63,983 bases of DNA, filler included, from Stramenopiles sp. TOSAG23-2 (GCA_900128395.1; 3 parts of 3 records of this genome joined end to end with filler, not necessarily neighbours in it); one strand, 5' to 3'. Counted from the whole stretch's first letter, positions 13,878 through 60,720 are shown. Program-made: numbers and translations. The notes: generated by a model from the sequence alone, not told the origin.

Positions 13878-14019
13878 ATATTCATTTATAATATAATGAT
13901 GGTTAAAATCTAAGTTATAATAATTTTACACTTTCCCGTGTTAAGTACGAAGCAATACTCAATCGCAAGAATAATATTCTATCCTATATACTAGATGATA
14001 TAGTAAAGCTCTAATGCAC

Positions 14020-14296: not shown

Positions 14297-15048
14297 TCAC
14301 TGTCTCTCTCTCCATTCTAAATATGTCAATGCCATATCCAAAGTAGAAAGATCCCCCTTGTCCGTATAACGTTTGATACGATCTAATTCCAATGGAACAA
14401 TACCAAATTGATTAGGCACCAATGCATTTTGACTATGATTGATAGGCTTCGTATACCATGGCAATCGATGACCAACCATTGTAAAGACCATCTTCATAGA
14501 TTTCATGTTACCATTGACAACATTATATTTTTTATTAAGTGCATCAATGATGGATAGAAAACATCGAGGCAAATGATATGCAGAACAACAGATCGCCCAC
14601 TTATTTCCAGCATTTGGAAGACTAGCAAAATGTTCAACAACACTATAAGCCTCATTTCTAGTATGAATTATATTTTCATCATGTGCATCAATAAACGGTA
14701 CACGAATAAGACGAGACTCTTCAACTCCATATTTCAATAGCTCTTTCGCCGACCATTGATATCCTTTGTAACCCGACAAACCGGGGGTTGAATCTAAAAT
14801 ATGTACTTTTCTTTCCTTGGATACATTACACCATTCAGCTAATTTTGGAAAAACGCTTTCATCCCCACCATTAGCTGGGTAACAATAACAATAAATATCC
14901 TTTATAGCTCTTGTATCATCATTAAAGCATTGCATGAGAAAAGATGTCCATTTTGTATCATGTTGAACATTTGGTAGGGTATCATCTTGATCACTCATTT
15001 TTTTACGCTTTTTTTTCTTTTGGAAGTGTAAATTGTTGATGACATTAT

Positions 15049-15083
<35 letters not shown>

Positions 15084-16084: not shown

Positions 16085-16414
16085 AGTATATATGTAAATT
16101 AATAAGCATATAGTATTTTTTTTATTTTTTGATATAAAATGTTATTTGTTTACATTCGTAAAAATGATATATGATACGAGGAGTTATTATATGTAAACAA
16201 TACATTAATTTTTTTTATTTATTTATTTATTATTTATTTTCGAATTATATAATTTCAATAATAATATTTATCGTAGTAGCTATTATTAATAGATAGAGCT
16301 ACCCAGGGCTACCATGTTAGTAGCACGTACGTAGAGCGTATATACGCTTCGCTTGCAATGCTAAGTTTATATGCTCAGGTACCCGGAGTACGTAGAGCGT
16401 AGTCTCTATTAGTA

Positions 16415-16438
16415 GCTAGCTGGGCTAGCCCAGCTAGC
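16415..16438. promoter_or_regulatory. Perfect 24-bp palindrome in a TAGC-rich upstream region
   Basis: GCTAGCTGGGCTAGCCCAGCTAGC equals its own reverse complement; function unknown. Confidence 0.4.
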
Positions 16439-17457
16439 ACACATGGGAAAAGACGAGCCCAGCTCGCCAGATAGCAACATTCTAAAGAAGGGGGGCACAT
16501 CTAAACTTAATTATAGCGCTACACATTACCATCAGAATAGTCGTCATCTATAGCTAATTACATGGCGTAGAACTTTTTAGTCGTCTATATATAATGTATC
16601 AGATTGAATATAGAATAGAAAGGAAAGCAGAGCTGTATGACGACGAATAAAAAAACCGATAGTAATAATGATGATAGAAATAACAAAGGTGATGAAAAGA
16701 TGCCGAATGATGTAAAATTAAATTGCACAGAGCTGAATATACCAGAATCGCCACAAATGTCTTCGATACTACCAAGGAGTCAAAAGAAGAGCACTATTTT
16801 TTAAATACACAATTAATGGAATTGAATATGAAATTGAAAAACGTTCTATGAAACGCAACATTTACATGCAAGTTCTGTTATTTTCTGTTAATGGACTGTA
16901 TGTCATGATTACAGATAAACAGATGAAAAAAATGATGTTTGGGACGGACTCTATATTTAGAGAAACGGGAACAACATCTGAAGTTATTGAAAATATACGA
17001 CATTCAGAAATGTATAGACTGGAATTGAGAAGATCTATAAGTGATAAGTGAGTAGAGAAGAGATATAGAGACTGCTGATAATGAATAAAAAGAATATTAT
17101 TTATTTTTTTATATTTAAACTTAGATTTTAACCATCATAAATTTTACACAAATATTTAAAACTAAAAAAATATTTGATTTATTTACGAATGATTTTACAC
17201 CGTTCGTAAATTTAATAAAAAAATATATACAGTCTGTTGGTTTCATATTATCATATCGTATATATAATGATATAATATACGAGTATATTAAATGTCAGTT
17301 ATTATAATATATGATAATATAAAATTATTAATTTACTTAGATTTTTTTAACCATTTATCATGTGATATGATATAATGCATATATTATGATTAGTAGGATT
17401 GACTATGATATAGGTGATACTTCGTACATTTCTGAGATCCCAGAGATTCGATTTTTT

Positions 17458-19242
17458 TTATTTCGCTTCTTGCTGCATTGCTTTAATAGCAGCAATACTT
17501 TGTTTCATAAAAACAAATTTACCTGCAAGCGTTGCAATTTGTTTGTTTGGAATTGTGTATTCTACTTTCTTTTCATTTTTAATCGTTTCGACACATTTAG
17601 CACAATATGTTTCACCCGTTTGAAGAATGCATGGATTATCAAAAATTTGCAAGCATTCCATACATGTCATTTCCCCTTCTACTGCTTCCTCTGCAGCACT
17701 TAATTTTGATAAAGCTGTATTTAATTCTTTCTCCCTTTTCTCTAAATCAATATTATCTTGTGCATTTTTTTCTAATAATTTGTCATTCTCACTTTTTAAT
17801 GCATCACGTTCCCCCATTACTCTTTGGCATTGTTCAGCTAATTCACTAAAACGACTTTCTATCAAACCTCGCATATTTGTTAATCTTTTTGCATCTTCAA
17901 TGGATTTATCACGGTCATTTTTTATTTCTTCAATTTCTTTCAATAATTTATTATTTTCCAAATCTTTCTTTCCCAATTCATTATTGATATTTTCAATTAA
18001 TAGATTATTTTTTGTATTTTCCAATTTCAATTTATTTTCCAAATCAGATATTTCTTTTCGCAATTCCATTTCTACTTCAAGTTTTTCATTTGCGTTTTTC
18101 AATGATTTTTCACGATCAATAGCACTTATTGTTTCGTGATTTTTTAATTCATTTGTCGCTTGGTCTAAATATTGCTTTAAACTATCAATTTCAAGTTTCT
18201 TATCATGTAACTCCGTCGTTAAATTTTTTATTTTTTCACTGGATGTTTTATTTTCCTTTTTCTGTTTTATGAATTCTTTCAACTTGGCATGCAATTCACG
18301 GATTTCTTTCTCGTGATTTGCCATTACTTTTCCAATTCGTGTTTGTAAACTTTGTACTTCGCTTTTTTTTGTATTCAATTTCATATTGAAACCAGATATA
18401 ATTTCATTTTCTTTCAGTTGAAATGTTTTCGTCATTCCATCCATTTCTTTTTGTAATGTTTGTGATTTTGCTTCATACATACCACATTCTTCATCTTTTT
18501 TAAGAAATTTTTCTTTCATTTCTTCATGCAATCTCTTGTATTTCTCCAATTCATGTTCAATGTTGGCAGTATTTGATACAATTTCTTTTGTTGACTCTGT
18601 ACTAATGTCTAATTTTGCATTTAGCATCTTAATTTTCTCTTCATCTTTGTACGATTTATTAGTTAAATGAACAACCGTATTTTGTTTCTCTGTTAATTTT
18701 TGTTCCAACATTTTGTATTTTTCGTTCAATTCTTTATATAAAACATCTTTACGACCGTATCGATCATTTGCCCCGCTTAATTCTTTCCTCAATTTCAACA
18801 CCGCTTCATCTACATTATTTGATGAAGTTTCCAGCTCATTAATTTTTCTGTTGGATTTATTCAAATTAGTAATTAATTCCTGTTTCAAAATATCTTGTTG
18901 TTTTAACAAATTTTGTTGTGTTTCAAGCGCTTCCTTTTGTACTTTTAACTTTTCTTCAAGACTATTTAAAACATCTTTATCATTGATGTATGAATTTTTA
19001 AATTCTTTTATATGCTTAAATAGGTCAGATTCAATTTGTCTATATTTTGCCATAGACATTGATGACGAAGAAGGCAAAGTTGGAGTCATAACTTCCTCCT
19101 GTTGTAGTGGTAAAGTTGTAGTGGATGGCGACGAGATAATTTTTTCAACATGATTATTTGTAATATTACTGTTTTCATCATTCACATTCGTTCTTTCTGA
19201 TTCAACAATAACTTTTAACTCTTTTACACCACCACGAGACAT
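17458..19242 (-). CDS. Long coiled-coil protein with a C-terminal degenerate RING-like domain
   Basis: About 480 aa E/K/L heptad-rich region followed by CMECLQIFDNPCILQTGETYCAKC...PN. Likely ATG at 19242 (MSRGG). Confidence 0.75.
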   Translation of the reverse strand: MSRGGVKELKVIVESERTNVNDENSNITNNHVEKIISSPSTTTLPLQQEEVMTPTLPSSSSMSMAKYRQIESDLFKHIKEFKNSYINDKDVLNSLEEKLKVQKEALETQQNLLKQQDILKQELITNLNKSNRKINELETSSNNVDEAVLKLRKELSGANDRYGRKDVLYKELNEKYKMLEQKLTEKQNTVVHLTNKSYKDEEKIKMLNAKLDISTESTKEIVSNTANIEHELEKYKRLHEEMKEKFLKKDEECGMYEAKSQTLQKEMDGMTKTFQLKENEIISGFNMKLNTKKSEVQSLQTRIGKVMANHEKEIRELHAKLKEFIKQKKENKTSSEKIKNLTTELHDKKLEIDSLKQYLDQATNELKNHETISAIDREKSLKNANEKLEVEMELRKEISDLENKLKLENTKNNLLIENINNELGKKDLENNKLLKEIEEIKNDRDKSIEDAKRLTNMRGLIESRFSELAEQCQRVMGERDALKSENDKLLEKNAQDNIDLEKREKELNTALSKLSAAEEAVEGEMTCMECLQIFDNPCILQTGETYCAKCVETIKNEKKVEYTIPNKQIATLAGKFVFMKQSIAAIKAMQQEAK

Positions 19243-19753
19243 GTTTGTACTTGTATGTTGATATGTATATGTATATGTATATACATATATATGAATGTAT
19301 GTGGATGACAATATACGTATATGTATATGCCAGTTTATCTATATATATTCAATATAGTACTAGTATATATATAAAAAATAATATATAGATTTAATCACGC
19401 GTATATACAGGTGCTACTGATGTACATCATTGTGGTAACCGACCACCAACACACACACACAGCACTATAACGGCCGGCTGTGATTTTTGTTTACCGGTAT
19501 TACCGAGTAGTTGTGTGCTGGTTGTTGCGATGTTGCTGATGGTGGTTGGATAAAATCAATAAAATAGCTACACAACAAATAATCCTTACAATGAACAATG
19601 ATGGTTTATGCATATAGTACCATATACCAAACAAACACAATATACTAAACCAGTCGTTGTGTAACAGAGTGTGATCGTAACTGTATTTCAATCAAAGAGA
19701 AATAATTTACATAATTAGAACTGTATTTTTTTACTTGATCACAATTCGATAAA

Positions 19754-21367
19754 ATGGCATATCACCCACCAAAACGACCACATCCAGAACAACACCCATC
19801 ATTTTTGCAAGAAATCAGACAAGCTGCAGAGTATATTCCACAACAATTTTATTTTGTCTCGTTGTCTAAAAAACCTGTCGAAGCGAGTGATTTAACTTTT
19901 TTAACAACAGATAAAGATTATTTGTACGAACATTTCTTTGCAGACTTTGGACCGCTTAACTTAGCAAAAGTATATCGATATTGCTACGCTATACGATTAA
20001 AATTAGAGGAATGTGCACAAACTGGGAAAACGTTATATCACTATACGTCGCTAGATCCACATAAACGCGCTAACGGCGCGTTTTTATGCGCAGCCTACAG
20101 TTTGTTGATATTAAAAAGGTCTGTACAGCAAGCTTTTCAACCGTTGTTAGGTTGTTTCCCACCATTATCGGCTTTTAGGGATGCCTCCTACGGCTTATGT
20201 ACATATACTATATCTGTTCTTGATTGTTTAAAAGGACTGCACAAAGCGCAACGTTGTAACTTTTTAAATTTACAAAATTTTGATTGCGAATCGTATGAGC
20301 ATTACGAAAAAATTGAAAATGGAGATATTAACTGGATCATACCAAATAAATTTTTAGCCTTTTCTGGACCACATGACAAAGCGAGACAAATGCAAGGAGG
20401 TTTATATACTTTGTCAGCGATGGATTATTCTAAATTATTTAAGCGTCTCGGTGTAGTTGCAGTGATAAGATTGAATACTCCTACATATGATAAGAATACG
20501 TTTATAAAGGAAGGTATTGAACATTATGATTTGTACTTCAAAGATGGAACTGTACCATCTGGGCATTTACTAAGTAATTTTTTCAAAATTGTAGAAGGAA
20601 ACAAACCAATAGCCATTCATTGTAAAGCTGGTCTTGGAAGAACAGGATCCTTGATCGGTGCATATATGATGAAAGTCCATAATTTTACGCCTAAAGAAGC
20701 AATAGCATGGATGCGTATTGTCAGGCCAGGTAGCGTAATAGGTCCTCAACAGCATTGGTTGGAACAAATACATCCACGAATGAAACGTTTGGGTGATAGG
20801 TATAGAAATGAATTCAATGTGTCCGAAAAAACACGTAAAGAAAGACAAAATCAAGCAGGATATCCAAGAGTTTATGCAGGTGAACCATATCGGGCATCAT
20901 TATCTACACATGGCAATAAATCAAGCCGTGAGTTTATCGGGTTTGTTGTAAGGCCATCTACAGAACAAATTCGTACAAGTAGGAACAATAATACCCATAA
21001 TGACCATAGTGAAACTACAATAAGAAATGCTAGACAAATGCATTCACATGCGCGATTTAATCAAAATTCATTAGCAAGAGTACGAACACCAAATTATAAC
21101 AATAAATACATATATAATTGCAACACCAACACGACGAATTACCAAAATGAATCGTTATCACAATTTAAAAGCAACAGTATTCATGAAAGTGTTGGAGATG
21201 GTAAAAGCAATGATTCAACATCTCTAACCACATCCAATTCTTCAAGTAATAAAAAAACTGGTAGAAATAAATATTCTGTCGATAAAATAAATACTATGGA
21301 AAACGGCAACAAGTTAGTAGTTCGTAGCAATTCTATGCCGGAGTTACTTCCACCTCAAACAAGGTAA
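19754..21367 (+). CDS. CDC14: Cdc14 dual-specificity protein phosphatase
   Basis: YEHFFADFGPLNL, FRDASYG, ENGDINWIIPNKFLAFSGP, catalytic HCKAGLGRT and RPGSVIGPQQ. Confidence 0.96.
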   Translation: MAYHPPKRPHPEQHPSFLQEIRQAAEYIPQQFYFVSLSKKPVEASDLTFLTTDKDYLYEHFFADFGPLNLAKVYRYCYAIRLKLEECAQTGKTLYHYTSLDPHKRANGAFLCAAYSLLILKRSVQQAFQPLLGCFPPLSAFRDASYGLCTYTISVLDCLKGLHKAQRCNFLNLQNFDCESYEHYEKIENGDINWIIPNKFLAFSGPHDKARQMQGGLYTLSAMDYSKLFKRLGVVAVIRLNTPTYDKNTFIKEGIEHYDLYFKDGTVPSGHLLSNFFKIVEGNKPIAIHCKAGLGRTGSLIGAYMMKVHNFTPKEAIAWMRIVRPGSVIGPQQHWLEQIHPRMKRLGDRYRNEFNVSEKTRKERQNQAGYPRVYAGEPYRASLSTHGNKSSREFIGFVVRPSTEQIRTSRNNNTHNDHSETTIRNARQMHSHARFNQNSLARVRTPNYNNKYIYNCNTNTTNYQNESLSQFKSNSIHESVGDGKSNDSTSLTTSNSSSNKKTGRNKYSVDKINTMENGNKLVVRSNSMPELLPPQTR

Positions 21368-21383
21368 AGTTTATATATGTGTT

Positions 21384-21649
21384 TTTCTCTTACTCATATG
21401 TTATATAAAATTCTTTTACTCCCGTTTATTAACATCTCAAATCAAAAATGATTTATAAATTTTAGTAAAAATTATTTAGTATTCAAAAGATGTTTCCGCT
21501 GTCTGTGATTCAGAGCTAAATGAAAGAGGTCCAAAGTTTATATATATATTATATAATTTAATTATATAATATAAAAATTTTCTCTTACTCATGTATTATA
21601 TATGTGTTTTTCTCTTACTCATATGTTATATAAAATTCTTTTACTCCCG
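21384..21649 (+). repeat. Copies of the dispersed TTTCTCTTACTCAT...TTCTTTTACTCCCG element (21384-21424, 21579-21592 partial, 21609-21649)
   Basis: The same motif recurs at 41459-41499, 46946-46958 and, inverted, at 58205-58253. Confidence 0.7.
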
Positions 21650-21659
21650 TTTATTAGAG

Positions 21660-21759
21660 NNNNNNNNNNNNNNNNNNNNNNNNNNNNNNNNNNNNNNNNN
21701 NNNTTAATTAATTAANNNNNNNNNNNNNNNNNNNNNNNNNNNNNNNNNNNNNNNNNNNN
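21660..21759. other. Artificial contig linker (N44-TTAATTAATTAA-N44)
   Basis: 100-bp spacer with stop codons in all six frames; identical to 43402-43501. Confidence 0.98.
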
Positions 21760-22179
21760 AGAGTTGGAGTAAAGTTAAAAAACTATAAACTATGTTAAGG
21801 TAAATTTACCGCAAAAAAAAAATTGATAGGAATGTCAGTATAAAATAATTCATTTTTAAAAAAGTATGACACCTTTTAATTTTTTTTAGTTTACCTTGCG
21901 TAAGAAATAACGTGGTGTATTACTCTGTATTGTTTATTATTACACGCACCAACATGATTGTACAATCCAAGACACATGACTGTGGCATTTTTTTTTTTAT
22001 ATTTTACATTTTTTTTTATTTTTAATTAGATTAATTTCTCCTCTAATTTTTATTAATTCAATTAAAAGTATACTCTCCAGCTCTGTCTGATGGCTGATGG
22101 CACATGCACCTTCCCACAGCTACAATTCCAGCATAATATCTCTATTGCATCGTCACTTTCTCGCTCTCTTTTTGACCGT

Positions 22180-23589
22180 TTAACAATTTGGAACATTCAC
22201 TGCTAATCCACCTAAGCTAGTTTCCTTATAATTACTATGCATATCTTCCCCAGTCTCTTTCATTGTTTTAATACATGCATCTAATGAAATCAAATGTGTG
22301 CCATCGCCGCGTAATGCGAGAGATGCGGCACTAACTGCTTTAATAGCTCCCACGCCGTTTCGTTCGATACAAGGCACTTGAACCAACCCACCAACCGGAT
22401 CACAAGTCATACCAAGGTGATGTTCTAATGCAATTTCTGCTGCATTTTCAATTTGCATTGTGCTCCCACCAAGTATTGCACATAAACCTGCTGCTGCCAT
22501 CGCACTAGCACTTCCTATTTCTGCCTGGCAACCACATTCAGCACCACTTATAGATGCTTTGTGTTTAATTAATCCACCAATTGCACTTGCAGTAAGTAAA
22601 AATTCGGAAATTTTATCGATTCCACTATCTGGAATATGTTCTAAATAATATTTCAATGTTGCAGGGACTACACCAGCAGCTCCATTTGTTGGAGATGTTA
22701 CAACCTGTCCACCACATGCATTTTCTTCGTTAACAGCCATTGCATATGTAGATAACCATTCATTTGATGCATGTGGGCTCAATTTTCCTATACGTTTTTC
22801 CTCTAACAATTGTTGATGAATTTTCATCGCTCTTCTTTTAACTTTTAAACCACCAGGTAATATCCCAACGTTGTTTAGACCTCGATATATACAATTATCC
22901 ATGACATTCCAAATTTCATTTATTCCATCTTCAACTTCTTTTCTTGTGTATTTAGATAATTCATTTTCAAGTTTCATCTCTGCAATTGTTTTATTTGATT
23001 GCAAAGACATCATAATCATTTCACTTGACGTTTCAAATGGATATGGAACTGAATTCATGTCATTGTCATCGTCTATATGTTCATCCTCTTCGTTCAGCAT
23101 TTGTTTCTCTGTTTTTATGAATCCACCTCCTATACTATAATATATTTCTTCATGGACTATTTCATCGTTATCATCCAATGCTAATAATTTCATGCCATTT
23201 GGATGCAAATCAACTTTTCCTAAATCAAAGTCAAATATTAAATCTGATTGGGGGTTGAAAGAAATTTCATTTGGTAAAAAATCATGTTTTATTACTAAAT
23301 TAGAATTTAAACGATGCAAATCTGCATCTGCTGCAATACGATCATAGTGTTTTGGATCATGTCCTAATAAACCAAGTATGGCGGCCCGGTCTGAATGGTG
23401 GCCAACACCTGTAAATGCTAAGCTCCCATGTAAAGAAACATGAAATTTTGTAATTTGCTCTCTTACATTGGGTGGTAGAGATTCTTTTAAGTTTTTTAAA
23501 AATTGCAAAGAGGCTATCATTGGGCCCATAGTATGAGATGAAGATGGGCCAATCCCCACTTTAAAAATACTAAACGTTGATAAAAACAT
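22180..23589 (-). CDS. sdaA: Fe-S-dependent L-serine ammonia-lyase (bacterial SdaA type, single chain)
   Basis: [80 protein letters not shown] and [10 protein letters not shown]. Confidence 0.95.
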
Positions 23590-24110
23590 ATTGCTATTGT
23601 CTTTATCTATTTTATCATGTTTATTCCAAATTTGCTACATCTTTGGCAACTGCTTTTTGTGGTAAAGTTTTTTTTATACATACAGAACCTTCTGTCTCTG
23701 GCACTCTGGGTTCTGTGGGCGGACGGGCGGACTTATCTTTTTTTGCTTTTATGGGCCTGGGCTTATACTTATCTTCTATGAAGTAGTATTCTAAAATGGT
23801 ATTTGTAGGCTTTCCTGGCTTTCACGCCTTTCACACCTTTCCTGTGGCTTTCATATTTCCATCATATGATTATATGATATACTGTACCTGTATCAATTTA
23901 CTTGTGCAACTTACTTGTATCATCTGTGTTGCGCTATACCGACCAGACGACAGTACTTGTAATTTATTATAGGATTTATGATGAATAAAAAGTGTGTTTG
24001 TTTATTATTTATAATAGAAAGGATAGAAGTAGAAAACAAGAAGATACATAATTGATAACATAATATGTATATATACAGATATAGATATACACAAATATAT
24101 AAAGCCAATT

Positions 24111-43401: not shown

Positions 43402-43501
43402 NNNNNNNNNNNNNNNNNNNNNNNNNNNNNNNNNNNNNNNNNNNNTTAATTAATTAANNNNNNNNNNNNNNNNNNNNNNNNNNNNNNNNNNNNNNNNNNN
43501 N
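43402..43501. other. Artificial contig linker (N44-TTAATTAATTAA-N44)
   Basis: Identical structure to 21660-21759. Confidence 0.98.
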
Positions 43502-43556: not shown

Positions 43557-43781
43557 AGTGGTACTACTTGGTACCACAGCAGCAGTGCATTTGTTAACAC
43601 AAAAATGAAGTGTGACGCAAAATAAAATGTGGTATATATATACTGAGGGAAAAAAGAACAAAACAACAAGAGATATTGTAAACAAGATAATAACCAAAAG
43701 AAATTAAAAGAAGGAGAATCATTGTTTACATATAGTATAATTTCATATTGAAATATTCTATCAACAATAGAGAATTCGAAG

Positions 43782-46700
43782 ATGAAGATAAATAATATCA
43801 ACAAACAATATGGATTACTTGCATTAGCAACTTGTTTAATTATTGCTGTTGTATATTATGAGATACCACAGAATCATTATGAAAGATATAAGATACGTCA
43901 AGCAAGGAATGAAATTGAAAAAGAAGGCGTAATATTATACCAGCACGAAAAGGATGATATTCAAAAAAGAAGATTGAATAAGGCAAAGAATACAAAAGGA
44001 AGTGATGCACATTTTGAACCGCAAGTTATAAAAGGTGTTATGTCACATCAACAAAGATTGTTTCATAAACTTGATTATAAAATATATCAAAACGTTGATT
44101 ATGTAATTGATAGAGAAGTAAAAAGTATTAAAAAAACATTATTTCGTCAATTGGGAGAATCAGGAGCAGCATTGACAGTTGAAAACACAGAACCGTTGAA
44201 GATAAAATACAACTGGGTCAATTTTGATAAAGATAAATCGCCACTTTTTAGACAATGTTTTGAAGCTGGAGCATGGTATTATCGCGGTGGCCGTAAAGTT
44301 ACATCGCCGCCAAGTGGAAGTTACAAGGCTTGTCTGGATCCTAACAAGCCAGACGCTGACCCGAACGCAAATTATCTAGGAGATACGGATTGTTGGGGAA
44401 AATGCGAGGCAGGATGGGTTCTTACCCCGGACGTTATTGAATATGTGAAAACATCTATTGAAAAAAGTTTAGAAGAGTTGGAGTCAACTCTACGGGTACC
44501 AAAAATCAATGGACGATTAAAATTCGAGAAAGGTACTGGTAGTTATATTCAACTTTATGAAGATTTGGGGTACAGCAAAGAAGACATATTAACAGAAAGA
44601 TGTTTCGCGGATGGTTACTTTTTCAATACCCCATTTGAAGATTCATGGTGTACAGATGGACTGGAAGAAGGATATAATTACGTTCTTTCCATTACAAACA
44701 CACCACCATTTAATAACGATGGTTCAGGTGCAGGTACTGGTGGAGTCACACTTCGTGACACTTACAACCGTCCACTTGCAGGCACTTACAATTTACTTCT
44801 ATCAATGGGAAAATGGTATGAAGATTCCATAGGTAAACCCGCAGACTATGGCCAAAAAGCTTTCAGAAGTCTTAGTATTCACGAGGCACTTCATGCACTT
44901 GGTTGGAATATTGGTGATTTACAACTTGCAAATGCAGTTGCCGGCCCATTCAAATCGTATACGGAACCTGGTGAGAAAGGAGTATCAGATGATGCTTTAT
45001 GGTATGTAAAGCCTTCTACACGAAGTGCAACGCTTGCGAAGGTACATTTTGATTGCCAAGACGAGTCAAAATGGAGAGGCTATCCTTTAATGGGTATAAT
45101 TGAAGGTGGTAGAGATTCACATCATAATAGTCATATTTTCTGGGAAGATGTTGAAAGTTATGGGTCAGGTGGCTTAATTACCCCGATAACATTGGCCTTA
45201 ATGGAGGACTTGGGTGTATATCTTGCCGATTATACAAAGAGCACACTTCCGAATTTAGGTGCCTTTGCTGGTTGCGATTTTGTGAATACACGATGCAGGC
45301 ATCAAGATGAAAATGGTATTACCGATCAAACCTATGAAACTGTTGCATCTACAGAGGAATGCGAAGGTTGGGTTAATAAATGGAATGGTGGTGGTTTGAA
45401 AAGCTATCTTTTAAATCAAGATTTTCGACTTAATAAATGTAACAACGATTATCGTACAAAGTGTGGTTCATTTAACAAGTGCCACCCTGAGTGTATTATC
45501 AAGACAGCTGATAATGGTAAGGAATATAACAAATGGAGACCACTTGGTAATGCAACGGGCGCCTTGCCAGCAATTTATCCGACAAAAACATCAAAAGAGG
45601 AAAAAACCCAGGCAGATTCAATGCTTTTATACGTTTTACCGTTATTAGTATCTATATTGTTCTCATTTGTTCTAGGTATAATATACAGAACATGCCATTC
45701 ACTCTTCGCTTCAGAGAAGAAAATGGTATGCTGGTCTCATTTGATCTCGTCGTTATTTGCTGCATTTGGTATAGCCATAATTGCCACAGCTATTTACGTA
45801 ATTGTCAAAACAGACGTATATGGTCACTTTTTAAGCTCAGGAGCAGCTGGTGCATTTGCTGCATTTGGCGTTATAATATTATTATTTGGCGTCGTACAAT
45901 ACAAAACAGCAAAGACAACACACCTTTTGTCTATATTTACAGTTGGTTTAGTGAGCTCTGTAGTGTTAATTGCGCAATTAGCAGTAGTTGCATATTTACT
46001 TTACTTTGTCCATAGCTTCGATGCGGTTGATAATGCTGAAGTTGGCACAAGTGATTACGAACGTTGGGAAAGCCATGGAGCAATGGGTGATAATTTGAAA
46101 TCAATGGAATCATACATTTGCAGATCATACCAAACGTGTTGTCGGGATCCAATACTTTTAGTAGGAGGAACGACGGATACAGAGGTGGATGCGGAGGGAT
46201 CGGTGATAATTTGAAATCAATGGAATCATACATTTGCAGATCATACCAAACGTGTTGTCGGGATCCAATACTTTTAGTAGGAGGAACGACGGATACAGAG
46301 GTGGATGCGGAGGGATCTTCTAACTCTTCTAACTCCAGTCGTATTGCAATTCATGCGAGTAATGTTACGATTGAAAACACGCAAACATGTGTAACACCTC
46401 ATCCTGGTATGAGTGAACAAGAACTAAGTTTATTAAAATTGAAAGATCCATCTAATGCTGGATTTTGTGAAATGGTTACTGGAACGAAAAATAAATATTT
46501 TACAAGCATGAGTGAGGGTGCATGCCAAAAATTGGATGAAGAAGTGATAGATTTCAATCGAACAAGTTGCCAGGCAAACTTTTGCAAGGCAGGAATTGGT
46601 GGATACAATAAATTTGTTACTACTATGATTGCTATGGCTCGAAGAAATATGTACTCATTTGCTATGATGTGTTTCGCATTAGCATTTGTTCAATTATTTC

Positions 46701-46840
46701 AATTAATTTTATTAATCAAATTGTATCGTTATCACAAAATACATACGCATAGTCAAACAGAAATGGTTCAAACGAAAGATGTAAAAGTAGTAACCACGAA
46801 AAAGGAAGACTTACAAAACCGATATAGACCTCAGGAATAA
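43782..46840 (+). CDS. Leishmanolysin-like (peptidase M8) zinc metalloprotease fused to a tetraspanin-like 4-TM module (980 aa once the 116-bp duplication is removed)
   Basis: N-terminal signal anchor; RP.AG..N, HEALHALG, HFDC, SH, TLALMEDLG.Y and GC.F motifs. These are followed by one TM, three TMs, a Cys-rich loop containing CC and a final TM containing Q. The frame is broken only by the exact duplication at 46086-46317. Confidence 0.8.
46086..46317 (+). repeat. Exact 116-bp tandem duplication causing a frameshift
   Basis: 46086-46201 is identical to 46202-46317. Confidence 0.92.
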
Positions 46841-47414
46841 AATGAGTATACATTTAATATTTTTGGAAAAAAAATGGTGTGTGTGTACGCTAGCTACTAC
46901 CACCAGGATTAATATGATGTGATATGGTGTGATATATATAAAATGTTCTCTTACTCATATATTATATAAAAATTTTAGACGAAAGAGATAATAAGGCAAC
47001 AGTAGAAAGAAATAGGCAAAATATACTTAAAACTGCCACACACTACGTGATCTTTAGTACCTCTTCAGCCCTAAACCTGAGGCGGGTAGCAGGGGGATAG
47101 CGTGGTGAGAGATTTTGGAGAGCTGTGCTTGATGCTGTTTTGGTGCTGATTTCGGCTGGAGGATGGTGTGATAGGGCGTGAAAATCATATTACTACTAAT
47201 ACAGGAAATCAAGTATACATGTAGAATAAAAATAGTTTCAGCCAGCAAGCACGTTTTTTTCTCATCAACATTTAATTTATTATTAGCATTTTTAGCACAA
47301 AAGAGACCACGTACCTTCTTGTAGATTCGTCACAATTTCGTGCGGCAAACTTCGATATCCACGAACTGCATTGAAAAAACGTTAGAACATCAAATCTAAA
47401 ATCCTTTTACAACG

Positions 47415-48047
47415 ATGATCCAAAAAATTGTACTTCTTGTTGCCCTTCTCTTTGTGCATGCTCAGGCAGGGACCTGGACCAAAGAAGACAACGTGCTTCC
47501 GCCTGGTCCTGAGGTTGTAGGTCCTGGCCGTTGCGATAGAGACTACATCTTCCTGGGTGATATGGAAGTCAACAGAAAATGCAAGCAGGATTGTTATTAC
47601 AATAAGTACAAATGTGGTGATTTTACAACATCATCCTGGATGGGACAAGCACCACTCGCAGAACGGAGCATGGATTGTTATCGCAAATGTAACAATGAAT
47701 GCAACCGCTGTGATCCCGATGGATTTGACCAACGCGCACACCAACCTTCTTGCCCGGAACCGCAGTGCTTGATTGAAACCAAGGAGAGAATCAAGTGCCA
47801 CGCAACCTGTGGCGGGTTGCCAAAACGTGTTCAAATGGCACTCACGAAGCGATATAAGAGCTTAGGTTTGGAAACTGGAGTAGTCGGCACCAACAATATC
47901 TGCTTTATATTTTGCACCTGCAAATTTAGCGGACCGAGAGGTTTCAGGTGGCATGGGGAATCGCTGTGTGCAAACTTGACTCCGATGCCTTTTCAGCGAC
48001 GCCTGAGAGCAAGTCTATACGACTTCGATGATGACTCTGTTTGGTAA
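47415..48047 (+). CDS. Secreted cysteine-rich protein of unknown function in a higher-GC segment
   Basis: Signal peptide MIQKIVLLVALLFVHAQA and many Cys including repeated CxxxC. GC content is visibly higher than in neighbouring genes. Confidence 0.7.
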   Translation: MIQKIVLLVALLFVHAQAGTWTKEDNVLPPGPEVVGPGRCDRDYIFLGDMEVNRKCKQDCYYNKYKCGDFTTSSWMGQAPLAERSMDCYRKCNNECNRCDPDGFDQRAHQPSCPEPQCLIETKERIKCHATCGGLPKRVQMALTKRYKSLGLETGVVGTNNICFIFCTCKFSGPRGFRWHGESLCANLTPMPFQRRLRASLYDFDDDSVW

Positions 48048-51079: not shown

Positions 51080-54000
51080 CTACAAAACTTGCATTTCCTC
51101 ATGAAATGCTTCATTATTACCAACAACTTCTTTCAATAATAAACTTAATGATTTCTCATCATATGTTTGATCAGCATTAACAGCACTCTCAATTGCTTTC
51201 ATCAACTCTGCAACAGTATTCACACGACTGTCCATTCGATGTAATATTAATTGGACTTCCAAAGATGTAATATTTTTATTCGTACTCAATGAATTTAAAA
51301 CAACATGCACAAATTTCATCGTACGATACATTTTTACTACTTCCATAACTGCAGTCATTAATTTATTTTGATCAACCAATTGTAAGCTTTTAAAGTTCAT
51401 ATACAGCTTTTTTCTCGACTTTCCGTGAAAACCAGCGGCTAGACCTAATTTTTTTTTCTTTATTAAAAATCGTTGTTCTTGTTGAATTAAAGCAAATAGC
51501 TGATATAAACTTGACGCTCTACTTTGATCTTCATCAAATGCAGTGTAACGTTTCAAATGAAACGTAAAATTTGCTAATGATGCAGCAGAATCATGCCTTT
51601 TAATCTTTGGAAGAATATCTTTCTTTGTATCTGTTGAGACATGTTCAGCATCTTTTTTGTCTACGTCTTTTCTATCCACTTCCTCGTTCATTTTTACTTC
51701 CCCATTCACAGTATCACTAGAAAGTTTTGAATCTAATTGTTCGTCGTCAACAACATGATTGTGATTATGATTATCGTTTTCATTCTCAAAATCAAATTTT
51801 TCATAATCTTTTGATGGATCATAGTATGCACAGCGAAAAAATCCCCCAGTCGTCTCATCATGATCAGACCAAGGACGTAAACAATCCCAACAAAATTCAT
51901 GATTGCATTTACAAGTCATATGTTTACACCCTTCATTTTTCTCCAACCTCTCCTTGCAACCAGGTTTGGGACATAATTTCGTATTTTTCATCAACCACCC
52001 AGCAAGCAAAGCCGCATCATCATTACTTTTTGTCTTCCATCTCTTCAATTGCTCGCAAGACGCTGGTGAATGCACTATATCACCACATAAAAAACAGAAA
52101 TTATGTCCACATGTTAAACATTTCACATCATCTTTTTTTACGTAAATATCCTTTGAAATATGCAAAATACGATCACAACGTTTGTTAGGGCAATAATTAA
52201 TGAAATCTGAATTGTATTTCACGTAGGATGATAATAATTGGTTTTGATACATTTTTACCTCATTTGGTTGTGCTAATATCTCCCATACAGTTTCATCCGG
52301 TATATAATTACAATTAGGAAACTGAGGGCATTTACATGTCACAAGGACGCGCTCACCCTCTGTTCTCGCAGCAGTTTTCAAATGTTCCGTCCAACAATCT
52401 TTACAAAATAAATGATTGCATTCTAAAGAATAAAATACACTTTTCTCTTCTAAACATACATTACAAAGAGTCGGAGTTCTTTTAATGACTTGTTTGCATG
52501 GCGAAGGTATAATAGAATCATTCACCTTTTCTGATTTATTTTTTATATTTGGTGTGGTACTGGTTATGGATAAAAGATCCATCACAACTTGATCCACATC
52601 CCATTTTAAAACATGCAATTTATATGCCACGAAACCATAAGTGATACTGTTGGAGAGTAAAGGATCTATTTTAGAACGTTTCGCTTCACTGCTACTGTTT
52701 GACACAATGTCAAGTATATCTAAAATTTCTTTTTTTCGCACGTCTAATGATTCATTTGGTGTTTTTGGAGTACATGTTTTTACTTCATGTAGGCTCAATT
52801 TGTTCATCATGGTACCTGTGTAAACATCTTCATCATCTTCATTATCTTTCGATTCATCAATATCTGCTACTTTTTCTTCATCATCACGGTTTTTCAAGGA
52901 AGATGGATTCAATTTCACTAAAGGCTCCATATTGGTTTTATTTTCAATATTATTATTATTATCTTCAATGTTTATTTCAATATTATTGTTATTATTATTA
53001 TTATCTTCATAATTGTAATCCTGATCACTATCCTCGTAAATTATCTTTTCCGATAGGACATTACTTGTAATTTTACCACTACTGCTATCATTATCATCGT
53101 TAAATTGAAGAATCCCATACGGACCACATAAATCTACAGTACACTCGCCTGTACTACTAAGTCCATTCCACAAATACCGATGGGCGTGACCTTTAAACAA
53201 TTCTATGGCATTTTCATACCAACTAGAAATCTCATTAATCTCTTCCTTCGTTTTCCCTCTGTACAAATTAGATTTCAAGTAATATTGATCAAACAAGTCA
53301 TATATAGTCTTGCCATCATTGCCACATAAAGCTAAAAATTTTGTGATAGAAATATCTTTCACGACATTTTTTTTAGTACCATTTGCAATGGTTTCTAATC
53401 TTAAATTGCATTGTTCAACTAATGTCTTAAATGTTTTTACATGGCCACAACTTGCAGCATGGTGAAACGCGGTTGATACTTTTGCTGCATCGGTTTGGGT
53501 TCTTAAAATTGCACCCGAGCCGCAGAGCAGTTTTATTAAACTTGCTGCCGTTTCATCACCTTTTGAACAACTAGCAGCACACATTAGTGCACTTTCATCG
53601 TTTAAATTATTCAAATTTGGATCTGCCTCTCTCATAATCAACCAATTTACTACCGCCTCATGCCCACCTTTGCATGCCAACATTAATGCTGTATCCCCAT
53701 TTTTAGCAACGATTGGTTTACGTGCGATACGTACACCTTGTAATGCAAGAAACTGTGCAAATTCTGCTTTTCCATATTTACATGCTATTAAAAATGGCGT
53801 ATAACCAAAATCATCCAATACATCCACCAATGCAGGGCGTATTTCAACCATTGATTGAAGTATTTCAACATCTTTCCCATATTTACAATAGAAATGAAGT
53901 GACGTTCCACCACCACTACTGTTACTGTTGTTACTGTTATTATTGTTATCATTATTTACAGTTAGTGAGGATGGCATTGTGTAATCCTGTGGAACCATGG

Positions 54001-55213
54001 CATTCCCTAATACAAAAATGGCATCTTTCTTCTTAGCTAATCCAGCAATATCAAACGGCGATAGGTTATGGACACCCCTCCTCACATTCGTTCCATTTAC
54101 CTTTACATTAAAATAATCCATCATATGTTGTATTAATTTACCACCGCCGATAAGCATGGATGCATAATGCAATGGTGTATACATTGTTACGTCGTTGTTC
54201 TTTCTTGCAACACTTTCATCTTGTGACGTGTTATCAATACAATCCAACTCAGATATATACCAAAGACTCAAATCAACTTCACCAATGACTACTCTTGCAT
54301 TTCTTGAAGTTTGTTTCCTTTGTTTATAAATAGTTTTAGATGGCAATGAGCACTTCAGTGATAAATTTTTTTTATTCGTTTCATTAAGTTCTAGTGATAA
54401 TGTTGATGAATCAATTCGATCTTTGTAAAATTGCAATGTATGTTCCTGAACAGAACCATATGAACATTTCACATCAACTTCAATTTCGTTCAATATTTCT
54501 TTATTCAAAGTCGAATGATTTTTTGTGCTATCTTTTTTATCAATTTTATCTCCCTTTTGCGATGTTAAGTCCATTGACTTTTCTTCTGATGATGTTATTT
54601 TATTTCTTTGCTGTTTTTTACAAGTTGATGATAGCAATGAAGCGACTTGTTTTCGTCTAATATCACCTAATTGTATAATTGCCATTCCTAACGGTACATC
54701 AGGCCAAAATGTTTTAGGTTTCCATATGGTTACACGTAATGCAGATGATGCAAAATATTTGCTTATTTCAAAAATATAGTATTGTTTCTTCCAGTCCAAT
54801 GTTACTTTTTTCGGTGATATTTTAATACTCCCAGTTGCTTGTTCTACTTTACTAGGGTCACATTTAAATTTTTGTGAATCCATCGCTAATGTTAAATAAT
54901 ATTTACCTTTTGGTGCGGGTTTTAAATATTTTTCAAATAATGTGGATTCTTTTAAATTTATGTACAAAAGCGCACGTTTCTTTGGACGATTATTTTGACG
55001 ACTATTATTACCAAAACGATTGTTAGTTTCATGATTACGACGACGTCGTAAAGGTGATCGCAACCCCCCTCGATGCCTATCTTGATTATTATTATTGATA
55101 TTAATATCAATAAAGTCCGGGTCATTATTATTTAAACATTGCTCTACATGTAAATCAATTTGATGTCGTGTAAATGTTCGTCCACATATTGGACATGGAA
55201 ATCGCTGTGCCAT
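51080..55213 (-). CDS. RBR (Ariadne/ANKIB1-like) E3 ubiquitin ligase with UBZ finger, C2-like domain and ankyrin repeats
   Basis: Start MAQRFPCPICG..HVEQC (UBZ). Ankyrin motifs TPLHYA, GYTPFLIAC and GDTALMLAC. RING1 CNVC..C.H.FC..C, IBR CPNKRC..C..CGH.FC..C..H.P..C and RING2 CPKPGC..EKNEGCKHMTCKC.HEFCW.C. Confidence 0.9.
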   Translation of the reverse strand: MAQRFPCPICGRTFTRHQIDLHVEQCLNNNDPDFIDININNNNQDRHRGGLRSPLRRRRNHETNNRFGNNSRQNNRPKKRALLYINLKESTLFEKYLKPAPKGKYYLTLAMDSQKFKCDPSKVEQATGSIKISPKKVTLDWKKQYYIFEISKYFASSALRVTIWKPKTFWPDVPLGMAIIQLGDIRRKQVASLLSSTCKKQQRNKITSSEEKSMDLTSQKGDKIDKKDSTKNHSTLNKEILNEIEVDVKCSYGSVQEHTLQFYKDRIDSSTLSLELNETNKKNLSLKCSLPSKTIYKQRKQTSRNARVVIGEVDLSLWYISELDCIDNTSQDESVARKNNDVTMYTPLHYASMLIGGGKLIQHMMDYFNVKVNGTNVRRGVHNLSPFDIAGLAKKKDAIFVLGNAMVPQDYTMPSSLTVNNDNNNNSNNSNSSGGGTSLHFYCKYGKDVEILQSMVEIRPALVDVLDDFGYTPFLIACKYGKAEFAQFLALQGVRIARKPIVAKNGDTALMLACKGGHEAVVNWLIMREADPNLNNLNDESALMCAASCSKGDETAASLIKLLCGSGAILRTQTDAAKVSTAFHHAASCGHVKTFKTLVEQCNLRLETIANGTKKNVVKDISITKFLALCGNDGKTIYDLFDQYYLKSNLYRGKTKEEINEISSWYENAIELFKGHAHRYLWNGLSSTGECTVDLCGPYGILQFNDDNDSSSGKITSNVLSEKIIYEDSDQDYNYEDNNNNNNNIEINIEDNNNNIENKTNMEPLVKLNPSSLKNRDDEEKVADIDESKDNEDDEDVYTGTMMNKLSLHEVKTCTPKTPNESLDVRKKEILDILDIVSNSSSEAKRSKIDPLLSNSITYGFVAYKLHVLKWDVDQVVMDLLSITSTTPNIKNKSEKVNDSIIPSPCKQVIKRTPTLCNVCLEEKSVFYSLECNHLFCKDCWTEHLKTAARTEGERVLVTCKCPQFPNCNYIPDETVWEILAQPNEVKMYQNQLLSSYVKYNSDFINYCPNKRCDRILHISKDIYVKKDDVKCLTCGHNFCFLCGDIVHSPASCEQLKRWKTKSNDDAALLAGWLMKNTKLCPKPGCKERLEKNEGCKHMTCKCNHEFCWDCLRPWSDHDETTGGFFRCAYYDPSKDYEKFDFENENDNHNHNHVVDDEQLDSKLSSDTVNGEVKMNEEVDRKDVDKKDAEHVSTDTKKDILPKIKRHDSAASLANFTFHLKRYTAFDEDQSRASSLYQLFALIQQEQRFLIKKKKLGLAAGFHGKSRKKLYMNFKSLQLVDQNKLMTAVMEVVKMYRTMKFVHVVLNSLSTNKNITSLEVQLILHRMDSRVNTVAELMKAIESAVNADQTYDEKSLSLLLKEVVGNNEAFHEEMQVL

Positions 55214-55220
55214 TTGTACC

Positions 55221-55251
<31 letters not shown>

Positions 55252-55917
55252 TTAATATAAAATCGACGAATAATATTCTTATCAATATATATACTGTATA
55301 GACAGATAGATATAGATATATAGATATTCTGTATATATACAGAGAAAATGTTTTGCTTACTTTTTTTAAAAATATATAAAGTATATATAATTGTATACTA
55401 AGATTGCGATTTTTAGAAATTTTTCCTTCGGTGAAGGAGAATTTAATTCGGCTTCGACTAAAAAAAAAATGTTGATGGAGGAGCAGGGGAGCTTTTTTCA
55501 GTGTCATGTAGTGCTATTATTGAAATTATTAGTACACCCTCTAAAAAACTGTAAACTGTTACACTTTTAACACTATTCACTATGGGGAAAATATTCATAT
55601 TTTTTTCTATATTTTCGGATATTTTGCTATTTTTTTCAATTATACAGGAGTACGTTGCATTATAGTAAGAAAAATAAAATTGGCATTTTAGAAAACGATA
55701 TATATTTCCCATAGTGAATAGTGTTATTAATAATTTGTTTGAGAGTATATTTAAACGTTACACTCCAATAAAATAAACCCATATATAAATTATAAGATGT
55801 AATAAATATATATCCAAATGTTATAATATACATGTATGAGGAGGCATGTTGATAAATATCTAGATGTGATCGCATATAAAGAACGATAGAAACATACATA
55901 AGACAAATTTAATTACG

Positions 55918-58476: not shown

Positions 58477-60720
58477 TCAACCAGTATACAAATGTGCCAT
58501 TCCAATGGAATCTTTTGTATAAATAACTCCATGTCCCCACATATCTGGGACGTAAATAATATCCCCAGGTTGTTGCCTACATTGCAATGGATAAACCCCA
58601 CGCTGATTTAGAAGGGGTAAATCCTCACGAAACCAATCATGTACATGCTTTGTACTGTAAAATGCAACTGACGGTGGAAACAACAGCCACAATTTTTCTC
58701 CAAAAACTAATAAATTCAATGCGCTGTTATGAAAATGTGGAGATGCTCCTGTTTTTGCTGGTGCAATCATAAACTGATAGTTGTTAAAAGAAAACAATCC
58801 TTTACTATTCTTTTCTAGCATGTAATTATAAAAATCAAACTTTTTAAAGTCTTCATCATATATTGATTTAGCTTGATCATCAATTTTCGTATCAACAAGC
58901 CATACAGGCAATTCATCATCTTCTGTACCTTCTTCTTGATAATAATACAAATCTTTCTCATCGTCATCATTATTATTATCATCATTATCAATATTATTCA
59001 TATAGTCTAAATATTCACCCATTTTCATCTTAAATGATTTTGGAGAAGTTGTTTTCGTACGTGCATAAACACTAAAGGATACATCCCCATATTCGTTCTT
59101 CAAATTGTCCCTAGTCCATTTATTAAACGCTGGCCAATTTATCACATCGTCTAATTTACGAAGCAAAACAGGCTTTTGTTCTTTAAAATAGTTTGGAAAA
59201 AGTGTTTTATTCTCATCTGTAAGTATATCTAAGTCGCAATGTTGCTCTGGTAAATTTTTCACACTAAGTTGCGAATTTGAACGCCATCCACCAATACGCT
59301 GTTCCGTATCTATTTGTGCATTGCTTAAAACTTCAAACGAAACAGATTCTTTACGGCCAACATGTGATGATGTATTCGTAACATCCGAGTTGCTATTATA
59401 ATGTATAATTTTTCTACGTGGTTTTTTCATTTTCATTTTTTCATCATCATCATTATGTATAATTAATTGTGACTCGATTATAAACTTTTGTACATTTACA
59501 TGTCCACCAATAGCTGCATTTTCAAACACAGTGCGACCATATGTATTTTCCTTCTTCATAGTTTTTTTTAATTTGTTACTGTCATTATCATCATTAAAAT
59601 ACTTAACAAGTAACTTGATCGCATTAAGATTACCATAATATGCAGCCATATGCATTGGTGTATTTAATAGTTTATCAGTCAATGTGTACCTACAACCAGC
59701 TTGTAATAATGGCAACAAAACATTTTCTTCATGCCATTTAAATAAAATATTATCTAATTTTGTACGATTGTATGATGTTGAATTCCAAAGCAGAAGATTA
59801 TCATCATCATCATTATTATAAAGTTTCGCTTTTAAATCAATTAATTCAAATGAATTATGTAATTCGCTGTTTGGAAATTTTTGTAATAAATCAACAGGAA
59901 CAGCAACATTACCATGTTTTGTTAACCATTTCGAGGCACGTATTAATAGCCAGCTTGTATCAAGTGCAATATTTAAAAGAGGACGACCACCTGGATCTCG
60001 AACATGTAATGATGGCATATAATATTTTTTATCAGTAAATAATTTAATCGCTCTTACATTAAAATTTTTCAATGCGAGCAATATTGGTACATCTTGCTTA
60101 TAATTAGCTCTGTCTAAGAGACTTGAATCTTTAAGCCTTGTTAAAATTGCAATTAAGGCCTTTTCATGCCCATTAGAATCTTTAATACGACGTGGTAACT
60201 CCATATTTTTCGGTTTACCATGCATATTTAAAAACAAATAATTCCATCCATCCAATATTGCATGTATCGCATTATTACCTTGATTATCAGTTAAGGATGG
60301 ATTTGCACCATTAGCTAATAAATATTCCACCGTTTTATAGTAACCTGCCCAACATGCTGCATGTAGCATTGTTCCACCCGTTTTTTTATTTGCTTCATTA
60401 ATATCAAACGTGCCTTTAGCATTTTTAAAAATTGCTTTCAAAATTTTATCTTCCCCTCTTAAGGTTGCTGCAAATGCATATGAACCAAAATGCAAAGTAT
60501 CTTTATATCGATGAGCTTTTTTAGCTAATTTTACCGCTTTTGATACTGGCCCAGTTTGCACAGCTAATTGAAAATCTTTTGCAAATTTAACCATCGCATT
60601 ATGACGCTTCGATGCAGATTGTTTTCGTCGTTTTGGTCTACCATCCACATATAATACTAATAATATACACATGAAAAATGTAAGAAGACAAATGTTGCAC
60701 ATTATATTTATTTTTTTCAT
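58477..60720 (-). CDS. Signal-peptide ankyrin-repeat + JmjC protein (JMJD8-like HxH site)
   Basis: Hydrophobic N-terminus; ankyrins GGTMLHAAC..G....VEYLL.NGANP and NTPMHMAAYYG. JmjC motifs KPVLLR, W...WT, QFMIAP..TGASPHFH, G.KLW.LFPP and QQPGDIIYVP..WGHGV. Confidence 0.88.
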   Translation of the reverse strand: MKKINIMCNICLLTFFMCILLVLYVDGRPKRRKQSASKRHNAMVKFAKDFQLAVQTGPVSKAVKLAKKAHRYKDTLHFGSYAFAATLRGEDKILKAIFKNAKGTFDINEANKKTGGTMLHAACWAGYYKTVEYLLANGANPSLTDNQGNNAIHAILDGWNYLFLNMHGKPKNMELPRRIKDSNGHEKALIAILTRLKDSSLLDRANYKQDVPILLALKNFNVRAIKLFTDKKYYMPSLHVRDPGGRPLLNIALDTSWLLIRASKWLTKHGNVAVPVDLLQKFPNSELHNSFELIDLKAKLYNNDDDDNLLLWNSTSYNRTKLDNILFKWHEENVLLPLLQAGCRYTLTDKLLNTPMHMAAYYGNLNAIKLLVKYFNDDNDSNKLKKTMKKENTYGRTVFENAAIGGHVNVQKFIIESQLIIHNDDDEKMKMKKPRRKIIHYNSNSDVTNTSSHVGRKESVSFEVLSNAQIDTEQRIGGWRSNSQLSVKNLPEQHCDLDILTDENKTLFPNYFKEQKPVLLRKLDDVINWPAFNKWTRDNLKNEYGDVSFSVYARTKTTSPKSFKMKMGEYLDYMNNIDNDDNNNDDDEKDLYYYQEEGTEDDELPVWLVDTKIDDQAKSIYDEDFKKFDFYNYMLEKNSKGLFSFNNYQFMIAPAKTGASPHFHNSALNLLVFGEKLWLLFPPSVAFYSTKHVHDWFREDLPLLNQRGVYPLQCRQQPGDIIYVPDMWGHGVIYTKDSIGMAHLYTG

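Follow-up and report, generated by a model that had tools for sequence, protein, structure and literature searches.

A probable single-chain fusion of an M8 (leishmanolysin-type) metalloprotease with a divergent tetraspanin in marine protists

The DNA analysed here (the window, 63,983 nucleotides [nt], filler included) belongs to Stramenopiles sp. TOSAG23-2 (GCA_900128395.1) and consists of three contigs, joined by N44-TTAATTAATTAA-N44 linkers at 21660–21759 and 43402–43501. The linkers carry stop codons in all six frames, and genes flanking a linker are not necessarily neighbours in the genome. The GC content of the window is 32.6%. On the third contig, 280 nt from its beginning, starts a gene on the plus strand (43782–46840, ATG at 43782, TAA at 46838–46840; the features of this gene given below all lie on the same strand) that encodes an M8 metalloprotease followed by a transmembrane (TM) anchor and a module of four further TM helices, which we file as a divergent tetraspanin. 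As assembled, its reading frame is broken by a short tandem duplication.

An initial repeat search reported two tandem 116-nt copies in a shifted register, with 97% identity. The exact register, set by script, gave copy 1 at 46086–46201 and copy 2 at 46202–46317, identical at 116 of 116 positions. As 116 is not a multiple of three, the duplication shifts the frame, and the assembled plus strand reads, in the standard code, as an open reading frame (ORF) of 810 amino acids (aa; 43782–46214) followed by one of 206 aa (46220–46840). When one copy was removed, a 2943-nt frame of 980 aa without internal stop was obtained. A homologue search retrieved an intact public protein of 981 aa, P0001, with 97% identity over 100% of the query, and the single-copy read-through was identical to it at 953 of 981 aligned positions (97.1%). 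Both the exact duplication and the 980-aa frame had been claimed in a preliminary description of this DNA, and both proved correct. The motifs cited there were likewise all found: HEALHALG (His codon at 44880), GRDSHH (His at 45120), ALMEDLGVY, and CRSYQTCC, whose Cys-Cys pair lies at 46137–46142 and occurs again, in the duplicated copy, at 46253–46258. The frame break falls within the large loop of the tetraspanin module, and the protease, its anchor (TM0) and TM1 to TM3 share one ORF even as assembled.

The protease half opens with a hydrophobic segment at 43812–43859 (approximately residues 11–26, in a helix of the model spanning residues 6–48). It had been described as a signal anchor; the hydrophobic segment was recovered, as a candidate signal anchor or signal peptide. 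The M8 ectodomain occupies 44169–45563 (approximately residues 130–594). For the 810-aa ORF, the Pfam family PF01457 (Peptidase M8) scored 31.8 bits, against a cut-off of 21, and relatives reached up to 111 bits. Searched with the family profile, leishmanolysin (1LML) was matched at E = 5.8e-11; the HEALH motif (HExxH, 44880–44894) aligned to HEMAH of 1LML, and GRDSH, the first His of which (45120–45122) is the third zinc ligand, to GSH. An AlphaFold 2 (AF2) model of the full-length protein (predicted local distance difference test [pLDDT] 78.4, predicted template modelling score [pTM] 0.63) gave 1lml as the sole Foldseek match at E ≤ 0.001 (E = 9.3e-11, probability 1.00, TM-score 0.54 normalised to the target, 379 columns), so that the claim of an M8 domain was borne out by profile and by structure. 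In 25 of 25 full-length relatives, HExxH with its catalytic Glu and the third His were invariant.

With leishmanolysin the protein shares HExxH and the distal His, a segment of the form EDLG.Y.A.Y.K, and the overall fold. It differs by an identity of about 17% over the Foldseek alignment, and by the residue of the Met-turn (45153–45155), where a Glu (EDVESYG) is aligned to the Met of DELMAP in 1LML. The membrane attachment differs as well: GP63 carries a glycosylphosphatidylinositol (GPI) anchor or a single TM segment, whereas the present protease has a TM helix as its anchor, with a complete tetraspanin behind it. Because all zinc ligands and the catalytic Glu are kept, the enzyme is taken to be active as judged from its residues, the lost Met being a real caveat. 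This Glu lowers the confidence in full activity, not in the M8 homology.

In the membrane half, a hydropathy scan placed the hydrophobic segments of P0001 at residues 617–635, 658–676, 688–706, 719–737 and 923–941, the N-terminal one being at 6–24. The first of them is TM0 (45627–45698, helix 604–644 of the model), which anchors the protein in the membrane after the protease domain. A linker with juxtamembrane Cys, predicted to be cytosolic (45699–45743), leads to TM1 (45744–45812; seen in hydropathy, model and profile). About 9 aa, forming a small outer loop, separate it from TM2 (45840–45902), and a short inner loop of about 8 aa separates TM2 from TM3 (45927–46013). There follow the large extracellular loop (46014–46654, 175 aa without the duplication), TM4 (46655–46729), and a C-terminal tail (46730–46837) of 36 aa, 8 of them Lys/Arg, that is predicted to be cytosolic. 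TM2, TM3 and TM4 were each found both by hydropathy and in the model. Four TM helices with loops of about 9, 8 and 175 aa reproduce, for a predicted orientation, the tetraspanin layout, the structural hallmarks applied here being those given in passages of PMC2278132. The anchor, the three close TM segments, the Cys-rich loop and the final Gln-bearing TM segment were thus rightly recognised in the preliminary description. Polar Gln residues were located in TM3 (Q733 of P0001) and TM4 (Q933 and Q936), and at these columns Gln or Glu was present in 20/25 and 19/25 relatives, respectively. The columns of S653 and H654 in TM1 were variable, and across the 25 relatives TM1 showed no conserved polar residue.

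The large loop contains a CCRDP motif, a disordered Ser/Asn-rich insert and four N-glycosylation sequons. Eight Cys between TM3 and TM4 were invariant in all 25 full-length relatives. The N-terminal segment is predicted to place the M8 domain outside, and TM0 to bring the chain back to the cytosol. The tetraspanin then starts from the cytosolic side, as is usual for tetraspanins, so that its large loop and the protease would both lie on the extracytosolic face. This topology is fitted by the basic tail, by the sequons of P0001 (5/5 in parts predicted to be outside, one in the M8 domain and four in the loop) and by the Cys of the linker. Residues 636–660 of P0001, which cover the linker with the end of TM0 and the start of TM1, hold one to three Cys in 23/25 relatives; those of the linker are candidate palmitoylation sites.

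The tetraspanin identity of the module was assessed by profiles, by structure and by its loop. Several relatives reach or approach the curated cut-off of the tetraspanin family PF00335 (32.1 bits): P0013 with 43.7 bits, P0042 36.4, P0003 33.4, P0137 32.4, P0005 32.1 and P0004 31.1. At E ≤ 0.01, PF00335 was found in 30 of the 67 members of family alignment A3. A profile built from 23 natural fragments of the module only (A5) was searched against the PDB sequences. Its top five matches were tetraspanins without exception: over TM1 to TM3, CD53 was matched at E = 1.5e-07, TSPAN7 at 1.3e-05, TSPAN15 at 0.0044, CD9 at 0.019 and CD81 at 0.63. When an AF2 model of the module (pLDDT 85.6, pTM 0.77) was compared with 48,161 chains in the VIA wide search, CD53 ranked first (Z 11.2, 185 aligned residues, root mean square deviation [rmsd] 4.7) and Tspan15 second (Z 10.4, 185 aligned, rmsd 4.2), the ranking, not Z, carrying the weight. 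CD9, PRPH2 and uroplakin scored Z 9.1–9.3, and CD81 scored 12.0 on a second comparison. In the ESM Atlas, 29 of 30 neighbours of residues 645–981 were clusters with PF00335 members (top score 0.93), such members being a minority of their clusters, 42–49% in the top three rows; the whole protein gave no usable match there. The Cys-Cys pair (residues 787–788 of P0001) closes a helix of the large loop (767–788, equivalent to helix 119–140 of the module model) and is accompanied by further conserved Cys, as in tetraspanins. On these grounds the tetraspanin-like module proposed beforehand is supported, through its relatives, the A5 matches and the VIA ranks, with a score of its own that stays below the Pfam threshold.

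The association of the two halves was followed through the family. A HMMER search with a five-sequence profile yielded 977 proteins at E ≤ 0.001, 245 at ≤ 1e-10 and 76 at ≤ 1e-30. Sub-profiles of each half, built from alignment A4, were run over 174 retrieved proteins. Both halves were present in 57 of them. The M8 half alone was found in 78, most of which end a few dozen residues past the match and are hence fragments; a few, P0067, P0153 and P0110 among them, have the M8 half with other C-termini. In 39 the tetraspanin half was found alone, and most of these begin inside or just before the module and look like fragments as well. Among the 50%-cluster representatives listed, 39 of 150 spanned the junction. 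The members with both halves include the MMETSP transcripts P0013 and P0016 and a protein of Prymnesium parvum (P0160, KAL1504838.1, UniRef A0AB34IU09, labelled 'hypothetical protein' or 'Metalloendopeptidase'). These three share with the window's protein the M8 domain, TM0, the four TM helices and the loop with its Cys-Cys pair, and belong to the same family. They differ in having about 24–26% identity to it, a place on another branch of a quick tree (with support from the Shimodaira–Hasegawa-like approximate likelihood ratio test, SH-aLRT) and a Met-turn whose Met is kept. No named stand-alone tetraspanin was seen among the seven close relatives returned by each of two family-alignment searches. 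To judge from these sequences, the M8–tetraspanin fusion is a family-wide trait. Two longer predicted members carry additional domains after the M8–tetraspanin unit, PA and Rhomboid in P0042 (1351 aa) and calponin-homology in P0032 (1294 aa), perhaps through a merger of neighbouring genes or through further fusion; a rhomboid protease next to or fused with the unit would be of interest.

Contigs of four sequencing runs (X1, X3, X4 and X9) were aligned to the window; these are assembled Logan contigs, not reads. X1, labelled 'DNA?', contains 96% of the gene's words, and a 3387-nt contig of it, which differs from the window by two letters over the aligned part, skips exactly 116 nt. A contig of X3, a run with the same label, lacks 125 nt, made up of the 116 nt and a 9-nt indel. 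A 3030-nt contig of the RNA library X4 spans 43767–46908 in one piece and skips the same 116 nt. Thus each of the three contigs that cross the duplication site (X1, X3, X4) has one copy. Overlapping pieces from X9, a polyA RNA library (44858–45591, 45562–45719 and 45690–46171), bridge the junction between M8, TM0 and the tetraspanin. The gene is common across marine datasets: twenty of the 24 runs listed contain at least half of its sampled words, ten of these 20 being RNA runs from four studies, which are marine and subsurface metatranscriptomes. As to whether one gene or two lie here, the X4 contig and the 57 proteins that span the junction speak for a single chain. The preliminary description had named two outcomes that would overturn it, a module with no tetraspanin profile or fold match and halves that prove to be separate genes; both were checked, and neither came about. 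The 9-nt (three-codon) indel is placed at 46316, in a low-confidence, Ser/Asn-rich part of the loop, and is polymorphic in X9 and X3; scattered substitutions between populations were also seen at the locus in the aligned contigs. In X4 and X9, RNA cover is missing beyond about 46930, which was not used as evidence of a transcript end.

Taken together, it is likely that a marine protist has here a single genuine gene, that the gene is expressed and encodes a multi-pass M8–tetraspanin protein of approximately 980 aa, and that the tetraspanin organises the protease in cis. As such an in-cis membrane organiser, the tetraspanin would govern the folding and export of the protease and place it in tetraspanin-type microdomains, and it might possibly set how high above the membrane, and in which orientation, the active site is held. 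Substrates of the enzyme would then be proteins close to the membrane or bound to a surface, either those of prey or those of the cell's own surface. The parallel would be TspanC8 proteins acting in trans on ADAM10.

Tetraspanins are known as in-trans partners of membrane proteins, and the steering of a protease by them has been worked out mainly for animal ADAM10. The TspanC8 tetraspanins of animals, named for eight Cys, bind and direct ADAM10 as separate proteins. In two reports, the tetraspanin of the ADAM10–Tspan15 complex is described as relieving autoinhibition, with the active site about 20 Å above the membrane (10.1101/2022.10.22.513345), and TspanC8 proteins as controlling the exit of ADAM10 from the endoplasmic reticulum (PMC4819958). 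The present protein resembles the ADAM10–Tspan15 complex (PDB 8ESV) in combining a metzincin-type protease with a tetraspanin whose loop is on the same side of the membrane, in the place of Tspan15 as second-best structural match of the module (Z 10.4), and in its eight loop Cys. It differs in that the pair is one polypeptide, that the protease is M8 and not ADAM (M12B), that the loop has a signature of its own, and that contact between loop and protease is conjectural here. The count of eight loop Cys is that of the TspanC8 subgroup; in the A5 search, over TM1 to TM3, TSPAN15 came behind CD53 and TSPAN7. The module is not filed as TspanC8, no specific kinship being seen in its sequence. The further idea of the fusion as a naturally occurring one-chain equivalent of the ADAM10–TspanC8 'scissor', its eight-Cys loop docking on the M8 domain and setting the position of the cut, is offered by analogy and tentatively, as something possible rather than expected.

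Several points weigh against the interpretation of the gene as an active protease organised in cis by a tetraspanin. Proteolysis, localisation and contact between loop and protease are all hypothetical, and the Met-turn Met being Glu, full activity is not assured. The window's own module scored 17.8 bits with PF00335, below the cut-off, and a 98%-identical fragment (P0008) scored 18.3 bits over profile positions 7–222 of 225; P0001 had no match at E ≤ 0.1. The A5 alignments to solved tetraspanins left the large loop uncovered. Z values of 10–12 can, by the tool's own note, be reached by helical bundles through arrangement alone, and Foldseek on the module gave no match at E ≤ 0.001 (best E 0.73), with tetraspanins among its top rows only at E of about 1. 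The Gly that follows the Cys-Cys pair in the CCG motif of animal and fungal tetraspanins was never found in the 25 relatives, which have R (17), E (3), W (2), K (2) or S (1) instead. Finally, Logan contigs cannot prove a single transcript, an RNA library may contain DNA, and the 'DNA?' label of X1 and X3 is an automatic guess, X1 being possibly the window's own source.

For the missing Gly a precedent is found in plants. According to passages of PMC8927881, plant tetraspanins have GCCK/RP in place of CCG, carry nine conserved Cys, more than most animal tetraspanins, and are still in the family. The module resembles them in that a basic residue comes after the Cys-Cys pair, with a Pro close by (CCRDP here), and in its high number of conserved Cys. 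The best ESM Atlas cluster of the module is commonest in Streptophyta. The plant proteins differ in being stand-alone and of ordinary length, and the likeness of the module to them is one of motif. The missing Gly marks a divergent subfamily and does not exclude the module from the tetraspanins.

Among other explanations, the one that survives best concerns the compartment. The protein could be an intracellular digestive protease on the membrane of phagosomes or lysosomes, its tetraspanin being an endolysosomal sorting device of the CD63 type and not a surface scaffold. This would leave the architecture and the cis-scaffold idea as they are and differ from the proposed surface protein only in location. 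With the predicted topology, the active site would face the lumen of whichever endocytic compartment contained the protein; members of the family are found in marine protists including Prymnesium parvum; and a part of PMC8163842 shows a Peptidase M8 orthogroup labelled 'Digestive enzyme' in a lifestyle prediction for uncultured marine stramenopiles. Against it can be set a weak negative, that inspection of the 36-aa tail (P0001 946–981) by eye revealed no sorting signal of the tyrosine type. We regard an endolysosomal location as a reasonable minor possibility, on the doubtful side.

Less probable is a real duplication in this organism, which would make the gene a recently inactivated pseudogene, yielding a truncated protease with TM0 to TM3 and part of the loop, other strains being intact. 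The exact tandem copy does stand in the assembly, and variants of the locus are known (the 9-nt indel at 46316 and the scattered substitutions). However, X1, X3 and X4 have one copy each, the X1 contig being nearly identical to the window, and the duplication is the only defect of the frame. Because no contig crossing the site carries two copies, the duplication is read as peculiar to this assembly, either a rare allele or an artefact that arose in assembly or amplification, and not as a feature of the gene; a pseudogene is accordingly unlikely. The 116-nt unit was also considered as an intron, GT..AG ends being possible at a shifted cut. This was rejected, as the unit repeats the coding sequence next to it letter for letter and is missing also from the contigs of the 'DNA?' runs X1 and X3.

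A somewhat poorer case can be made for an M8 domain that is weakened or dead in the window's clade and serves as a binding or adhesion module displayed on the tetraspanin. The Met-turn column holds M in 16, L in 4, E in 3 and I in 2 of the 25 full-length relatives, and all five members of the window's clade, one group with an SH-aLRT of 100 in the quick tree, have E or I there. Metzincins with a mutated Met-turn Met have kept their activity, with a lower stability. Moreover, none of the 25 relatives, the clade included, departs from HExxH, its catalytic Glu or the third His, a conservation that is unexpected for a dead enzyme, and we consider the loss of catalysis improbable.

Much less credible is that the module is a generic four-helix membrane bundle, convergent or from another four-TM family (MS4A, sarcospan, MARVEL). 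The lack of a significant Foldseek match and the missing Gly of CCG are what it would predict; entries containing sarcospan and Fc-epsilon-RI come near the tetraspanins in the VIA search (Z 9.4–9.7), and one relative touches MARVEL at 22.4 bits, below the cut-off. Yet PF00335 is the sole membrane family matched by many members (the 30 of 67), four relatives pass its cut-off, tetraspanins fill the top five A5 matches with CD53 at 1.5e-07, and they hold ranks 1 and 2 of the 48,161 chains with the longest alignments. The ESM Atlas neighbours, 29 of 30 being clusters with PF00335 members, argue in the same direction, so that a tetraspanin is strongly to be preferred. Hardly to be believed, finally, are two separate neighbouring genes or an assembly chimera with accidental read-through: the window consists of joined contigs and its frame is broken, but the break lies inside the tetraspanin loop and not between the domains, M8, TM0 and TM1 to TM3 being in one ORF, and the junction is spanned by 57 of the 174 proteins, from many sources, and bridged by RNA-library contigs.

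The M8–tetraspanin fusion joins two known families in a new domain architecture; the kind of system is not itself new. It is already in public databases, unremarked: the records of P0160, P0013 and P0016 hold no description of a fusion. The preliminary description knew of no report of it, and full-text literature searches, whose coverage stops short of subscription journals, likewise found no paper describing an M8–tetraspanin fusion; a search for leishmanolysin with tetraspanin gave no fusion paper, as judged by titles and the beginnings of abstracts. The sole paper naming both PF01457 and PF00335 treats them, in the portion concerned, as separate families. The annotation of members now labelled 'hypothetical protein' can be improved at once.

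If the single-chain 'scissor' idea holds, the protein would be a Rosetta-stone fusion, spread through haptophytes and other marine protists, indicating that the coupling of tetraspanins to metzincins is ancient in eukaryotes or was invented more than once, and it would offer a compact model for how tetraspanins steer proteases. The fusion is also independent evolutionary evidence that the pairing of a tetraspanin with a metalloprotease is functionally meaningful outside animals. A one-gene system fixes stoichiometry and partner choice, and rules of trafficking, microdomain placement and cleavage site should be easier to test with it. As the gene is found in the RNA libraries of four studies, its product may matter, at the surface or in digestion, as an enzyme of abundant marine protists.

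In the remainder of the window the ORFs are long, and the neighbouring genes are eukaryotic. About 90 nt after the stop codon of the M8–tetraspanin gene lies a short AT-rich element (46932–46968), for which the summed contig word depth in X1 is approximately 7000–23700, versus about 38 for the gene, and to which many different flanks adjoin, as loose contig ends of X1. A second copy with two mismatches was found at 21574–21602, and related units (TTCTCTTACTCAT...ATTCTTTTACTCCCG...) are present at the end of the first contig, at about 21400–21660. It resembles a dispersed or satellite repeat of very high copy number at which assemblies break. The product of the next ORF downstream (47415–48047, plus strand), 210 aa long, begins with a hydrophobic stretch, contains many Cys and matched no Pfam family; it is possibly a secreted Cys-rich protein. 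On the minus strand, 51080–55507 encodes a protein of 1475 aa with ankyrin repeats followed by RING-IBR-IBR, the architecture of an RBR-type E3 ubiquitin ligase. Two proteins of the Cupin_8/JmjC hydroxylase type are encoded at 58477–60720 (minus strand), this one with N-terminal ankyrin repeats, and at 11784–13877 (plus strand). A single ORF of 469 aa at 22180–23589 (minus strand) combines the beta and alpha chains of serine dehydratase (PF03315 and PF03313), and is an L-serine dehydratase of the iron-sulfur type amid an otherwise eukaryotic gene set.

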